Below, in pieces: positions 1,982 to 4,717 of a stretch of DNA of 4,828 nt; the first letter of the stretch is position 1, and the number at the start of each line of letters is the position of its first letter. The notes under the pieces were generated by a model. It was not told where the DNA came from, did no database searches, and worked only from the letters and a program-made list of their open reading frames with translations. The position numbers were made by a program, and so were the translations under genes. The stretch is from a virus (Duplodnaviria; Heunggongvirae; Uroviricota; Caudoviricetes), in IMG/VR virus record IMGVR_UViG_2681813264_000007. One strand, written 5' to 3'.

Positions 1982-2797
1982 AACTGGAAGATTTACCGAA
2001 ATACTACTCCCCAAAATCCCCCGGCCTGACTGATGCATCGGCCTCAACGTCGAAAGATGCGCTGAGTATCACTGATGTGATGGCCGCGCAGGGCATGACA
2101 CAGAATCGGGCTGAGATGGGGGTTTCTGCGTTCCTTGGGAAAATGGGCATTAGTATGAATGACAGAGAGCGGGCAACAGAATTGCTGACAGAATATGCAC
2201 TCAGTCGGTGTGATCGCGTGGCGGCGTTAAGAAAACTCCCGGCAGAAATAAAACCGGCAGTGATGCGTATTATGGCTTCGTATGCGTTTGAAGATTATGC
2301 CCGTAGCGCGGCGAGCAAAAAACAGTGCCCCTGCTGTCACGGAAAAAAATTTATTGAAAGCGAGGTTTTTACAAACAAGATCCAGTATCCGGATGGTAAG
2401 CCGCCGGTATGGGCAAAGTGTACGAAAGGTGTGTATCCGTCTTACTGGGAAGAATGGAAAAAAGTCAGGGAGGTGGTAAAAGTTGCCTGTCCGGAGTGTG
2501 GCGGAAAGGGTGAGGTTTCCACCGCCTGTAAGGATTGCCGTGGGCGTGGTGTCGCCATTCATCGTGAAGAGTCGGTAAAACGTGGTATGCCTGTTATCAG
2601 AGACTGCCAGCGTTGTGGTGGTCGTGGCTATGAAAGACTACCATCAACGGAGGCATTTAATGCTATATGCGAGGTGACAAACCAGATAACACGCGCGTCA
2701 TGGGAAAAAACAGTTAAGAAATTTTATGATGCGCTGGTGACCCGGTTTGATATTGAAGAAGCATGGGCTGAGCGGCAGTTAAAAAAGGTAACTAGGT
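1978..2797 (+). CDS. Late-gene antitermination protein Q (QuuQ/phage-21-82-like family), 3' end truncated by the N-run
   Basis: At least 273 aa, with four CxxC pairs in DnaJ-like CxxCxGxG spacing (CPCCHGKK, CPECGGKG, CKDCRGRG, CQRCGGRG). It sits immediately downstream of rusA and upstream of a tR'-like terminator and the late-region cargo, which is the canonical Q position. The ORF enters the N-run, so the true stop is unknown; the track's end at 2904 is an artefact of translating N as X. Confidence 0.7.
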
Positions 2798-2839
2798 NNN
2801 NNNNNNNNNNNNNNNNNNNNNNNNNNNNNNNNNNNNNNN
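2798..2839. other. Run of 42 ambiguous bases (assembly gap or masked sequence)
   Basis: Directly visible as n characters. The true length and content are unknown. By lambdoid gene order the Q stop codon, the late promoter PR' and the qut site are expected here. Confidence 1.
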
Positions 2840-2876
2840 ATGGGCGTTTTATGCCTGACGTTAGAAGAGTTTCTAC

Positions 2877-2902
2877 AACCCGCCGCCGAGCGGGTTTTTT
2901 AT
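2877..2902 (+). terminator. Rho-independent terminator, tR'-like (late-operon terminator subject to Q antitermination)
   Basis: GC-rich stem CCCGC (2879-2883) pairing with GCGGG (2890-2894), 6-nt loop, then TTTTTT (2895-2900). Positioned just downstream of Q, as tR' is in lambdoid phages. Confidence 0.65.
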
Positions 2903-3020
2903 GACTGAAATCGCGTCAGTACAGTAAACGCGCTGGTGGCGGTGAATACCTGTCTTTCAGCTTGCTGGCTTTTTCGACAAGAGTTATTGGTGTGTCACGT
3001 TAACCGGAAAAGGAAAAGAC

Positions 3021-3218
3021 ATGCTAAAACAGCAGGATATGACAGAAACCGCCAGAGTGGTGTTTAATGAATTAAGCGTTACCGAACCGGCGACAGTCGG
3101 GGAGATAGCGCAGAATACTTACCTTTCACGCGAACGCTGCCAGTTAATACTGACTCAGCTTGTTATGGCGGGTCTGGCAGATTATCAGTTCGGTTGTTAC
3201 AGACGCCTTCCGCAGTGA
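3021..3218 (+). CDS. Small winged-helix-like DNA-binding protein (65 aa), hypothetical regulator
   Basis: Good SD, AGGA (3011-3014), 6 nt before ATG 3021. The segment TVGEIAQNTYLSRERCQLILTQLVMAGLA has the hydrophobic/Gly pattern of small wHTH regulators (AsnC-N-terminal, PapI/FaeA-like). Family assignment is by pattern only. The stop TGA lies inside a terminator hairpin. Confidence 0.55.
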   Translation: MLKQQDMTETARVVFNELSVTEPATVGEIAQNTYLSRERCQLILTQLVMAGLADYQFGCYRRLPQ

Positions 3219-3230
3219 AGGCTTTTTTAT
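3205..3230 (+). terminator. Rho-independent terminator overlapping the stop codon of the 65-aa ORF
   Basis: Stem GCCTTC (3205-3210) pairing with GAAGGC (3217-3222), loop CGCAGT, then TTTTTT (3223-3228). Confidence 0.6.
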
Positions 3231-3245
3231 TTGTGGTAAATGGGC

Positions 3246-3276
3246 GGCTGGTGGGTGTTAGGGGCACCCACCAGCC
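3246..3276. repeat. Perfect 12-bp inverted repeat with 7-nt loop, carrying a Chi octamer in each arm
   Basis: GGCTGGTGGGTG (3246-3257), loop TTAGGGG, CACCCACCAGCC (3265-3276). GCTGGTGG is on the + strand at 3247-3254 and on the - strand at 3268-3275. No T-tract follows, so it is not a classical terminator. Confidence 0.9.
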
Positions 3277-3317
3277 ATCTGCTCATGCGTTGGGTTCACA
3301 AGCAAACCTCAGGCCCA

Positions 3318-3336
3318 CTGCTTTGCGCAAAAGCAG
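3318..3336. repeat. Second hairpin / near-palindrome in the methyltransferase leader
   Basis: CTGCTTT (3318-3324) pairs with AAAGCAG (3330-3336) around the loop GCGCA. The core TTTGCGCAAA (3322-3331) is a perfect DNA palindrome. Confidence 0.7.
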
Positions 3337-3368
3337 AATGAGCCTATCAGAGACAGGCTTAATGATCC

Positions 3369-4427
3369 ATGCTTAATACTGTAAAAATATCCAGTTGTGA
3401 GTTAATCAACGCCGACTGCCTGGAATTTATCCGGTCGTTACCCGAAAATTCTGTTGACCTGATAGTCACGGACCCGCCGTACTTTAAAGTGAAGCCTGAG
3501 GGCTGGGATAACCAGTGGAAGGGCGACGATGATTACCTGAAGTGGCTGGACCAGTGTCTGGCGCAGTTCTGGCGGGTACTGAAGCCTGCCGGAAGTCTTT
3601 ACCTGTTCTGTGGTCATCGCCTGGCATCTGATATCGAAATCATGATGCGTGAACGCTTCAGTGTGCTGAACCATATTATCTGGGCGAAGCCGTCCGGACG
3701 CTGGAACGGATGCAACAAGGAAAGCCTGCGGGCGTATTTCCCCGCCACAGAGCGCATTCTGTTCGCGGAACATTATCAGGGGCCGTATCGTCCGAAAGAT
3801 GCCGGGTATGCGGCGAAGGGCAGTGCACTGAAACAGCATGTGATGGCCCCGCTGATTTCTTACTTTCGTGATGCGCGAGCTGCCCTGGGGATAACGGCAA
3901 AACAGATTGCAGATGCCACAGGAAAGAAAAACATGGTGTCGCACTGGTTCAGTGCCGGTCAGTGGCAGTTGCCGAATGAAAGCGATTATCTGAAATTACA
4001 GGCGCTGTTTGCCCGGGTGGCAGAAGAGAAGCATCGGCGTGGTGAACTGGAAAAGCTCCACCACCAGCTGGTGGATACGTATACCTCACTGAACCGGCAG
4101 TATGCGGAGCTGCTGAGTGAATATAAACATCTGCGGCGGTATTTTGGCGTGACGGTGCAGGTGCCGTATACCGATGTGTGGACGCATAAACCGGTGCAGT
4201 TCTATCCCGGGAAACATCCGTGCGAAAAACCGGCAGAAATGCTGCAGCAGATAATCAGCGCTAGCAGTCGTCCGGGTGACCTGATTGCAGATTTTTTCAT
4301 GGGGTTGGGTTCGACAGTGAAAGCGGCACTGGCGCTCGGGCGTCGTGCAATTGGCGTTGAGCTGGAGACTGAACGTTTTGAGCAGACGGTTCGGGAAGTA
4401 CAGGATTTAGTCAGCCAGAACGGATGA
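3369..4427 (+). CDS. DNA methyltransferase, beta-class N6-adenine/N4-cytosine amino-MTase (N6_N4_Mtase fold), apparently orphan
   Basis: 352 aa. The catalytic DPPY motif lies near the N-terminus (VDLIVTDPPYF, nt 3471-3482) and the AdoMet-binding FxGxG motif near the C-terminus (DLIADFFMGLGSTV). Motif IV before motif I defines the beta permutation. A roughly 130-aa variable region between them is the presumed target-recognition domain. No restriction endonuclease gene is adjacent. Confidence 0.9.
   Translation: MLNTVKISSCELINADCLEFIRSLPENSVDLIVTDPPYFKVKPEGWDNQWKGDDDYLKWLDQCLAQFWRVLKPAGSLYLFCGHRLASDIEIMMRERFSVLNHIIWAKPSGRWNGCNKESLRAYFPATERILFAEHYQGPYRPKDAGYAAKGSALKQHVMAPLISYFRDARAALGITAKQIADATGKKNMVSHWFSAGQWQLPNESDYLKLQALFARVAEEKHRRGELEKLHHQLVDTYTSLNRQYAELLSEYKHLRRYFGVTVQVPYTDVWTHKPVQFYPGKHPCEKPAEMLQQIISASSRPGDLIADFFMGLGSTVKAALALGRRAIGVELETERFEQTVREVQDLVSQNG
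4061..4074. repeat. 14-bp perfect palindrome CCACCAGCTGGTGG containing Chi on both strands, inside the methyltransferase CDS
   Basis: Direct reading: CCACCAGC (4061-4068, Chi on - strand) overlaps GCTGGTGG (4067-4074, Chi on + strand). It encodes the H-Q-L-V-D stretch of the methyltransferase. Confidence 0.9.
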
Positions 4428-4467: not shown

Positions 4468-4543
4468 GGCCCTTTAGCTCAGTGGTGAGAGCGAGCGACT
4501 CATAATCGCCAGGTCGCTGGTTCAAATCCAGCAAGGGCCACCA
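4468..4543 (+). tRNA. ileZ: tRNA with CAT anticodon, most likely tRNA-Ile2 (lysidine, AUA-reading; ileX/ileZ-like) rather than tRNA-Met
   Basis: Manual cloverleaf: acceptor GGCCCTT pairs with AAGGGCC; D-arm GCTC/GAGC; anticodon loop CTCATAA (CAT at 4501-4503); T-arm GCTGG-TTCAAAT-CCAGC; discriminator A; encoded CCA. The anticodon arm GCGACTCATAATCGC resembles E. coli ileX. The symbol is by analogy with the ileZ-argN-argO trio of Stx phages and is tentative. Confidence 0.8.
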
Positions 4544-4550
4544 TCACATA

Positions 4551-4627
4551 CCGCCATTAGCTCATCAGGAAAGAGCGCCAGCCTTCGAAGCTGGCTGCGC
4601 GGGGTTCAAGTCCCCGATGGCGGTCCA
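4551..4627 (+). tRNA. argN: tRNA-Arg, anticodon TCG (reads CGA/CGG)
   Basis: Manual cloverleaf: acceptor CCGCCAT pairs with ATGGCGG (C1:G72); D-arm GCTC/GAGC; anticodon stem CCAGC/GCTGG with loop CTTCGAA (TCG at 4585-4587); T-arm CGGGG-TTCAAGT-CCCCG; discriminator T; encoded CCA. The symbol is by positional analogy only. Confidence 0.75.
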
Positions 4628-4640
4628 TTATCTGCATCAT

Positions 4641-4717
4641 GCGTTGTTAGCTCAGCCGGACAGAGCAATTGCCTTCTAAGCAATCGGTCACTGGTTCGAA
4701 TCCAGTACAACGCGCCA
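4641..4717 (+). tRNA. argO: tRNA-Arg, anticodon TCT (reads AGA/AGG; argU-like)
   Basis: Manual cloverleaf: acceptor GCGTTGT pairs with ACAACGC; D-arm GCTC/GAGC; anticodon stem ATTGC/GCAAT with loop CTTCTAA (TCT at 4675-4677); T-arm ACTGG-TTCGAAT-CCAGT; discriminator G; encoded CCA. Resembles E. coli argU. The symbol is by positional analogy only. Confidence 0.8.

Follow-up and report, generated by a model that had tools for sequence, protein, structure and literature searches.

A both-strand Chi palindrome in a lambdoid prophage is probably one helix of a conserved leader RNA that abuts an M.EcoGII-type methyltransferase gene

The DNA analysed here, called the window throughout, is a stretch of 4,828 nucleotides (nt) from the viral record IMGVR_UViG_2681813264_000007 (IMG/VR; Caudoviricetes), which its open reading frames (ORFs), Pfam matches, terminator scan and tRNA scan identify as the late-regulatory region of a lambdoid prophage. 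In the spacer between a gene for a 65-amino-acid winged helix–turn–helix (wHTH) protein and a gene for a non-specific adenine methyltransferase of the M.EcoGII family lies a perfect palindrome that carries the recombination octamer Chi on both strands. We find that this hairpin is helix P2 of a conserved non-coding element of about 140 nt (window 3232–3371) that ends at the methyltransferase ATG. From comparison of related sequences, we consider it probable that the element is a structured, cis-acting leader RNA that gates the expression of the M.EcoGII-type methyltransferase.

The geometry of the palindrome was as the initial annotation of this DNA had described it. Two 12-nt arms, GGCTGGTGGGTG (3246–3257) and CACCCACCAGCC (3265–3276), are 100% complementary and enclose the 7-nt loop TTAGGGG (3258–3264), so that a perfect inverted repeat spans 3246–3276. 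Chi, GCTGGTGG, is exact at 3247–3254 on the plus strand and at 3268–3275 on the minus strand, and the second double-Chi palindrome, CCACCAGCTGGTGG at 4061–4074, has Chi at 4061–4068 (minus) and 4067–4074 (plus). The hairpin does sit between the wHTH stop codon (3216–3218) and the methyltransferase ATG (3369), and it is not a simple intrinsic terminator: no T-tract lies 3′ of it, ATCTGCTC comes next, and with AUCUGCUC following the hairpin the terminator scan calls only 2877–2896 and 3205–3222. The view of the spacer as non-coding also stood, since the two overlapping mechanical ORFs (3240–3341, 33 amino acids; 3194–3376, 60 amino acids) have unconserved frames. In many relatives a TAG in the loop, which is 6–7 nt long, stops the 3240–3341 ORF after 7 codons. 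A short coding ORF from the conserved ATG at 3240 (MGGWWV...) was accordingly rejected, being 7 amino acids long in many relatives and shifted in frame by loop indels. The other frame is annotated as DUF3927 only in variants that lack the methyltransferase. In one such variant (L388, 2842–2916, equivalent to window 3234–3258 onwards), RefSeq gives a 24-amino-acid DUF3927 ORF, VVNGRLVGVVVVAFPLLKKKTPDC, which starts at GTG and covers the 5′ flank together with the first arm of the hairpin; the corresponding frame of the window runs VVNGRLVGV, after which it diverges.

Of 100 dinucleotide-preserving shuffles, 1 gave a perfect arm of 12 nt or more with 3–20 nt in the loop, so the palindrome alone is unusual rather than overwhelming, and its significance comes from comparison with relatives. 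Leader DNA was taken downstream of wHTH homologues in viral contigs and in a single genome for each species. A stretch that begins about 10 nt 5′ of the hairpin and reaches the methyltransferase ATG is strikingly conserved across enterobacterial genera, with examples from Escherichia albertii, Salmonella, Kluyvera, Klebsiella, Citrobacter, Buttiauxella, Mixta, Scandinavium, Mangrovibacter, Enterobacter and Providencia. Across 24 species, with identities of 53–86% for the wHTH protein and 62–80% for the methyltransferase, long runs of the leader are invariant, and the non-coding leader is more conserved than the proteins that flank it. A metagenome scan returned close relatives only.

RNAalifold, applied to a plain MAFFT alignment of these leaders, predicts five helices, P1 to P5, and a covariance model (R1) built from the MAFFT alignment of 20 species matches the window once, with a score of 122.4 bits (E value 3.8e-29). 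The parts of the leader in the window are as follows, with pairing percentages referring to alignment cells.

3232–3371, plus strand: whole leader element, from UGUGGUAAA to the methyltransferase AUG (covariance model R1)
3232–3240, plus strand: conserved 5′ flank, made up of GUG, 3–6 purine-rich nt and UGGGC (sequence reading)
3241–3245, plus strand: 5′ strand of P1, UGGGC, with its partner at 3313–3317 (RNAalifold; 99.8% paired)
3313–3317, plus strand: 3′ strand of P1, GCCCA (RNAalifold)
3246–3276, plus strand: P2, a stem of 12 base pairs (bp) with a 7-nt loop (97.1% paired in 98 leaders)
3278–3306, plus strand: P3 hairpin, 3278–3287 with 3297–3306, one nucleotide after P2
3281–3286, plus strand: 3′ strand of P1alt, GCUCAU, with its partner AUGGGC at 3240–3245
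3318–3336, plus strand: P4 hairpin, CUGCUUU/AAAGCAG (95.3% paired; two compensatory pairs)
3339–3361, plus strand: P5 hairpin, ending 7 nt 5′ of the AUG (four of six pairs changed on both sides)
3363–3371, plus strand: start region UGAUCCAUG, without a Shine–Dalgarno sequence

Natural variants preserve these helices with different letters. P1 is kept by compensatory changes as GAGC/GCUC in Mixta and GUGGC/GCCAC in the Aeromonas phage PhAER-2, and the P4 position is occupied by UGCUG/CAGCA in phage phiKO2. P3 contains conserved C·A and A·C mismatches and has three compensatory pairs among 98 distinct leaders (for example, UA 42, CG 27 and AU 4); its 5′ strand overlaps the 3′ strand of P1alt. 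The latter extends P2 to an 18-bp hairpin with a 4-nt bulge and is incompatible with both P1 and P3. Across the 98 leaders P1alt is 98.3% paired (GU 64, GC 33 and AU 1; UA 67 and UG 31), with a compensatory change in locus L248 and retention as AUGGG/CCCAU in phiKO2. By sequence reading, UGUGR in the 5′ flank is complementary to the invariant UCACA at 3296–3300, a putative pairing. The start motif UGAUC(U/C)AUG is nearly invariant among leaders, and its UGAUC is able to pair with G(G/A/U)UCA at 3294–3298, as it does in most predicted folds. Because the five core pairs are almost invariant and only one flanking pair covaries (AU 43, GU 17 and GC 14), we treat the UGAUC–GRUCA pairing as hypothetical.

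Several other readings of the element were set aside. Natural variants disrupt the pairing that a pseudoknot between AUCAG in the P5 loop and CUGAU 5′ of the AUG would need. A sigma-70 or extended −10 promoter in TGTGAAAAT was not adopted, as it has no scan match and the GTGAAGT and GTGAGGT variants fit poorly; the scan found no promoter-like site on either strand in 2700–3500. Hammerhead and other ribozymes and a tRNA-like structure were dismissed on unsuitable junction lengths and the lack of any Rfam or ARAGORN match. The put antiterminator RNA of HK022 likewise consists of two hairpins with one nucleotide between them; the fixed register with the ATG argues here for a leader role instead.

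Covariation was counted in the structure-blind MAFFT alignment of 20 species other than E. coli, against a structure specified by hand. There, 97.2% of cells are paired, compared with 30–43% when the 3′ partners are slid, and seven pairs are altered on both sides, compared with 1.4 in column shuffles (0 of 500 shuffles reach seven). Model R1, built from this alignment, matches directly 5′ of 62 of the 80 methyltransferase orthologs retrieved with the Providencia protein, and in 70 of 80 pattern-selected viral contigs. It also reaches phiKO2 (44 bits) and PhAER-2 (26 bits), the methyltransferases of which are 60% and 55% identical, respectively, to that of the window. Among the 98 distinct leaders, 17 of the 36 modelled pairs are compensatory, including pairs altered on both sides at 7 of the 12 positions of P2, and slid controls are 34–41% paired. 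A rerun of RNAalifold on the 98-leader alignment recovered P1, P2 and P4. As for the strand, P2, P1alt and P5 are rich in G·U pairs, which become A·C if read on the minus strand, and for P5 the paired fraction is 84.5% on the plus and 69.0% on the minus strand.

The same leader precedes the methyltransferase gene almost wherever that gene was found. The census comprised 391 sequences, with 358 methyltransferase loci that had enough flank; in 339 of these the long leader lies on the same strand and abuts the ATG, in hosts and phages that include Salmonella, Klebsiella, Providencia, phiKO2 and an Aeromonas phage. The remaining 19 are a clade with a shorter leader and an Aeromonas phage (shorter or more divergent leader). 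Viral contigs L249–L266 have a leader of about 95 nt that keeps GUGAAAUG, a hairpin at the position of P2 (for example, GGCUGGUG/CACCAGCC or GGCGGGG/CCUCGCC) and the conserved start region AUCGAUUUAUG; P1 and P3 are absent from them. Leaders that demonstrably lack a methyltransferase number only two (L013 and L100).

The predicted enzyme is assigned to the M.EcoGII family by sequence identity and by the beta-class order of its motifs, with DPPY first (residues 35–38) and FMGLG, as the FxGxG motif, near the C terminus. Over 349 amino acids it is 92.8% identical to M.EcoGII as printed in the supplement of PMC11551740, a figure that is a lower bound because the M.EcoGII text was machine-read and contains errors. 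The methyltransferase of phage 1720a-02, a phage that is itself among the database matches, has been described as very similar to M.EcoGII (PMC5778455). Adenine is methylated by M.EcoGII whatever the sequence context, and RNA and single-stranded DNA are substrates as well (PMC5778455). That the enzyme is silent in the lysogen and deleterious if constitutively expressed (PMC5778455) makes tight control plausible.

In most of the contexts compared (other genera, locus L343, phiKO2 and the Aeromonas phage), a terminator-like hairpin of different sequence lies upstream of the leader; none is evident 5′ of the leader in L271 or in Providencia-type loci. The depositors of phiKO2 annotated a putative late promoter and a terminator ahead of the leader. 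Because a terminator-like hairpin stands directly 5′ of it in most of these contexts, the leader would be made only by antiterminated late transcription, that is, transcribed only within the antiterminated late transcript.

Of the roles that the initial annotation had offered for the palindrome, an RNA stem-loop in the 5′ leader of the methyltransferase is the one that we retain: the stem belongs to an element of about 140 nt that covaries across genera, is co-oriented with the gene and abuts its ATG. In the mechanism that we propose, the leader would act in cis on translation, and possibly stability, of the methyltransferase mRNA. The base of P2 could close in two mutually exclusive ways, as a three-way junction (P1, P2 and P3) or as a long hairpin (P1alt and P2), and formation of the long hairpin would free the GRUCA segment to pair with the invariant UGAUC beside the AUG. 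Switching between these states, possibly with the aid of a protein, would limit synthesis of the host-toxic enzyme to the right moment, much as translation of mom depends on Com. We infer that RNA is the active form and that control is translational, and likewise the direction of the switch and the existence of a protein partner. Nearest-neighbour energies for 11 representatives place P1alt with P2 at most about 2 kcal/mol above the minimum-free-energy fold, or in that fold itself, in every case; the two states are 0–13 kcal/mol apart, the three-way junction being the higher.

A more ambitious version, in which the leader represents a new class of riboregulator, has in our estimation an outside chance of being correct. 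It would be either a riboswitch-like sensor or a device for autoregulation of the methyltransferase, with the enzyme or N6-methyladenosine (m6A) shifting the balance between junction and hairpin; M.EcoGII acts on adenines of RNA in vitro, and m6A weakens A–U pairs. A ligand, the enzyme or the m6A mark would then determine how much of a genome-wide adenine methyltransferase is present in late growth of the phage.

Several observations weigh against a switching leader RNA or blunt the evidence for it. The 98-leader alignment was fitted to R1, so that its pair counts lean towards the structure, and P1, P4 and the UGAUC pairing are almost invariant, offering little information either way. Many of the compensatory cells come from few clades, mainly the Providencia group; an all-against-all analysis of mutual information in the 98 leaders is dominated by the split between Providencia and the rest, and hence is uninformative. 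In the E. coli and Providencia clades the long hairpin is favoured over the junction by 6–13 kcal/mol, and in this energy model the three-way junction may need a partner or may not form. A plus-strand structure in single-stranded DNA may be compatible with the wobbles, given that G·T is tolerated in single-stranded DNA hairpins. Nor is the strand evidence unanimous, because the mismatches of P3 are nearly all C·A or A·C and the helix is better paired on the minus strand (94.9%) than on the plus strand (83.8%). This pattern may mark a deliberately weak helix, A+·C wobbles or an antisense transcript.

The comparison of stems separates the helix from its Chi content. P2 exists in 49 distinct stem versions; Chi is present on the plus strand in 33 of them and on the minus strand in 11, the latter restricted to fully Watson–Crick stems. 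The plus-strand octamer is lost in the other 16, several times by compensating changes on both arms. Stems that are paired and lack Chi include GACUGUAAAGGUG/CACCCUUACAGUC, GACAGUGAGGAUG/CAUCCCCACUGUC and GACCGAUGAGUG/CACACAUCGGUC, together with GCGGUUAG/CUAACCGC in L343 and GCUGCAGCAUG/CAUGCCACAGC in phiKO2, and the helix also occurs with the altered sequence GGCUGGAUGGUG/CACCGUUCCAGCC. About half of the sampled E. coli loci have the perfect stem of the window and about half have the 3′ arm CACCTGCCAGCC, which pairs through U·G and G·U and has no minus-strand Chi. The initial annotation had suggested searching other lambdoid prophages for this exact palindrome at the same position: in relatives the RNA stem is kept, whereas the DNA palindrome is imperfect or bulged in most of them.

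The 5′ arm is nearly fixed and the 3′ arm varies (CACCTGCCAGCC, CACTTACCAGCC and the bulged CACCCGGCCAGCC), a bias that pairing accounts for, because changes of G or U in the 5′ arm break pairs and C-to-U or A-to-G changes in the 3′ arm give wobbles. Chi is accordingly present in the 5′ arm because that arm is G/U-rich and mutationally frozen by pairing, and on this sequence comparison the display of Chi on both strands belongs to one allele, as a side product of a G/U-rich stem, and is not a selected feature. The exact allele occurs in 1,218 of 5,426 complete E. coli genomes (median one copy, maximum five). A dispersed palindrome of the repetitive extragenic palindromic or bacterial interspersed mosaic element type was discarded in view of these few copies and of the location in the 391 sequences, 5′ of the methyltransferase or its remnant. 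The second palindrome, at 4061–4074, is accounted for by the conserved codons His-His-Gln-Leu-Val; the 14-mer is kept in 123 of 214 copies, and the synonymous variants CAT, CAA, TTG and GTC break it in relatives. We draw from this the caution that, in a region rich in Chi, a G/U-rich RNA stem can bring about a both-strand Chi palindrome as a by-product.

These results bear directly on two DNA-level explanations. That the palindrome is a recombination signal, presenting Chi to RecBCD on one or both strands, would fit the exact octamers and their abundance: the 4.8-kb window holds nine Chi sites, compared with 0.19 expected from shuffles, and Chi is its commonest octamer.

Chi starts, plus strand: 709, 767, 2932, 3247 and 4067
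Chi starts, minus strand: 1173, 1225, 3268 and 4061

Homologous loci in other species likewise contain 2–12 Chi sites per 5.2 kb, mostly on the plus strand. Lambdoid phages that lack a recombination module are enriched in Chi, mostly on the top strand and clustered near the right genome end (Zheng et al. 2025, PMC12315714); because the region of the window corresponds to that end, its Chi abundance is a phenomenon already described. Under the lambda convention that PMC12315714 quotes, the orientation termed active is that of the plus-strand copy alone. Homology breaks in three relatives also make the hairpin and its Chi site coincide with mosaic junctions. In L387 (phage PhiR5_1, at about 2884) and L388 (at about 2867), both without the methyltransferase and the tRNAs, homology ends right after GGCTGGTGGGTGT, aligned to window 3258 and 4 nt 3′ of the plus-strand Chi, and returns at about 4762, past the tRNA genes; in L013 it ends 7 nt past the 3′ arm, and an AraC-family gene comes next. 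A recombination signal nevertheless leaves unexplained why the octamers are lost by compensating changes on both arms while the stem stays paired, with plus-strand Chi in 33 and minus-strand Chi in 11 of the 49 stems. Pairing already predicts the conservation of the 5′ arm, Chi needs no hairpin, and the conserved stretch runs to 140 nt with further helices. We therefore regard this explanation as improbable, and with the second palindrome explained by its codons, the bidirectional hotspot of the initial annotation finds no support as the reason for the element.

Least credible of all, in our judgement, is a palindromic operator in the DNA to which the neighbouring winged-helix protein would bind as a dimer, another role that had been put forward. 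The perfect symmetry in the window and the presence of the wHTH gene immediately 5′ in 338 of 350 loci would suit it. Yet the arms are asymmetrically conserved, with the DNA palindrome imperfect or bulged in most relatives and the RNA pairing retained, and in 12 loci the leader and methyltransferase stand without a wHTH gene, behind unrelated DNA (a divergently transcribed gene in L343). The protein is moreover acidic, with an isoelectric point of 5.1 in the window and of about 4.5–5.1 in four of five versions. The third helix, CQLILTQLVMAGL, is hydrophobic, and its sequence shows no co-variation with that of the stem: the same helix occurs beside the unrelated stems GGCTGGTGGGTG and GACTGTAAAAGT. 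The protein has a weak, below cut-off match to Pfam TrmB (E value 0.0026). An AlphaFold2 model (predicted local distance difference test score 91) is a three-helix winged helix of H-H-H-wing topology, for which Foldseek returns generic winged-helix neighbours only (E values of about 1e-3 to 1e-2): N-terminal winged-helix domains of S-adenosylmethionine-dependent O-methyltransferases, MarR- and IclR-type regulators and RNA-binding winged helices of SelB. The protein may have a shape-specific RNA-binding or a protein–protein role; its modelled neighbours include O-methyltransferase dimerisation domains, and it may work together with the methyltransferase and not as a regulator that binds DNA.

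Two RNA-level alternatives share part of the evidence with a leader that gates translation. In the polycistronic mRNAs of lambda and T7, hairpins serve as processing sites for RNase III, and the P1alt–P2 hairpin resembles them in being long and irregular, with an asymmetric bulge, between cistrons of a late transcript. It might thus be cleaved by an RNase III-type activity or be protective in the polycistronic late transcript, and cleavage would part the methyltransferase cistron from that of the wHTH protein or leave the methyltransferase mRNA protected at its 5′ end. The long hairpin is at or near the minimum-free-energy fold in each of the 11 representatives, a terminator and the next cistron flank the element, and the late transcript carries three tRNAs that need processing. 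Such a role would, however, leave the near-invariance of about 140 nt, the invariant unpaired bases, P3 to P5 and the fixed ATG register unexplained, and we consider it unlikely. Still less probable, and in our view very doubtful, is a small RNA, antisense or trans-acting, that would be transcribed from the minus strand and have P3 and P2 for hairpins. On that strand P3 would be a perfect, G·U-containing helix, and the strand as a whole folds equally well (z score −4.8, compared with −4.7). Rfam 15 holds no family that reaches the gathering score with the window or with the Salmonella copy, and the best match, to P26 on the minus strand, is weak and sub-threshold, with 24.2 bits where the cut-off is 36 and no more than 16 bits for the Salmonella copy. 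P2, P1alt and P5 are better paired on the plus strand, the promoter scan of 2700–3500 is empty on both strands, and a trans-acting RNA would not need a fixed register with the methyltransferase ATG.

A cis-acting leader for a gene of this kind has a known counterpart. Translation of the toxic, adenine-modifying mom gene of Mu requires binding of the small protein Com to the mom leader. Com homologues precede non-specific adenine methyltransferases, at the position of mom, in Mu-like prophages (PMC3299994). The arrangement here is similar in that a toxic, broad-specificity, adenine-modifying late gene has a structured leader and, usually, a small co-oriented, regulatory-looking gene 5′ of it. 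It differs in the small protein, which in the window is an acidic winged helix and not the Com zinc ribbon; in the position of the wHTH gene, which is 5′ of the leader and dispensable in 12 loci; and in the RNA, for which sequence alone predicts a multi-helix element of about 140 nt, compared with a short hairpin and an inhibitory stem in Mu. A Com (PF10122) gene directly 5′ of the methyltransferase is absent from the window and was found only in the ortholog from the Aeromonas phage. There, in PhAER-2 (L390), leader and methyltransferase ortholog are separated by the unannotated ORF MNLNELRCGNCSRMLARLSGAAEIKCPRCKV... at 1330–1517, which scores 34.5 bits with Pfam Zn_ribbon_Com (PF10122), for a cut-off of 22.9, and so forms a com–methyltransferase operon. 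Because this methyltransferase family sits in a com-type operon in at least one phage, post-transcriptional control is supported as a theme.

Other known systems overlap in part. The element shares with riboswitch and attenuator leaders a multi-helix junction, invariant unpaired bases, a position abutting the start codon and two alternative pairings that share 3281–3286, both compatible with the sequences across the family; unlike them, it has no terminator 3′ of it, and the energies favour one state in most clades. With the Chi-rich lambdoid phages in which a Rec module is missing (PMC12315714) it shares exact GCTGGTGG and dense Chi in the right-end region from Q to the lysis genes; the window departs from their pattern in its split of five plus-strand and four minus-strand sites, and the hairpin Chi is not conserved as such. 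Literature on the stem sequences, on the regulation of EcoGII and on the late promoter and methylase of phiKO2 contained nothing on the leader element, no prophage small RNA in the literature retrieved corresponds to its site, and RefSeq leaves the site unannotated. Within Rfam 15 and the literature searched, the leader element is apparently undescribed; as an RNA motif it is new, within the known category of leader control of a toxic phage DNA-modification gene. M.EcoGII is widely used, and a conserved leader at the start codon is an obvious candidate for its natural control, a hypothesis that can be tested directly.

The remaining features of the window, by position, are these.

542–1600: gene for a DUF968/HNH protein
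1601–1981: RusA gene
From 1978: Q-type antiterminator gene (PF03589), the 3′ end of which enters a gap of 41 N
2877–2896, plus strand: tR′-like, intrinsic-terminator-like hairpin after the Q gene (terminator scan)
3021–3218, plus strand: gene for the stand-alone winged-helix (wHTH) protein, 65 amino acids, annotated as TrmB-family or DprA-like WH (ORF)
3205–3232, plus strand: terminator-like hairpin GCCTTC-CGCAGT-GAAGGC (3205–3222) with the T-tract TTTTTTATTT (scan)
3369–4427, plus strand: gene for the M.EcoGII-family non-specific adenine methyltransferase (Pfam PF01555, E value 7.9e-42)
4468–4717: three tRNA genes, with anticodons CAU, UCG and UCU, directly 3′ of the methyltransferase as in Shiga toxin (Stx) phages

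The hairpin at 3205–3222, which the initial annotation had missed, overlaps the wHTH stop codon (3216–3218) and lies 24 nt 5′ of the palindrome. With the hairpin at 2877–2896, also on the plus strand, it places the methyltransferase behind two terminators. The run of 41 N (2799–2839) breaks the 3′ end of the Q antiterminator gene and the region in which the late promoter is expected, and thereby hides that promoter and the Q-binding site. In a close RefSeq relative the three tRNAs are labelled Ile, Arg and Arg.

The closest public match to the window is an E. coli prophage with identical gene order, in which the lysis genes come next. The same module is present in Stx2-converting phages, and its place in phiP27 is between the Q antiterminator region and the toxin genes, just 5′ of the tRNAs and stx2e. 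Given this common occurrence and placement, the module may therefore also shape late-operon expression in Stx phages and phiP27. A 581-nt query comprising the wHTH gene and the leader was matched at 80% coverage or more in 1,877 of the 5,426 complete E. coli genomes.

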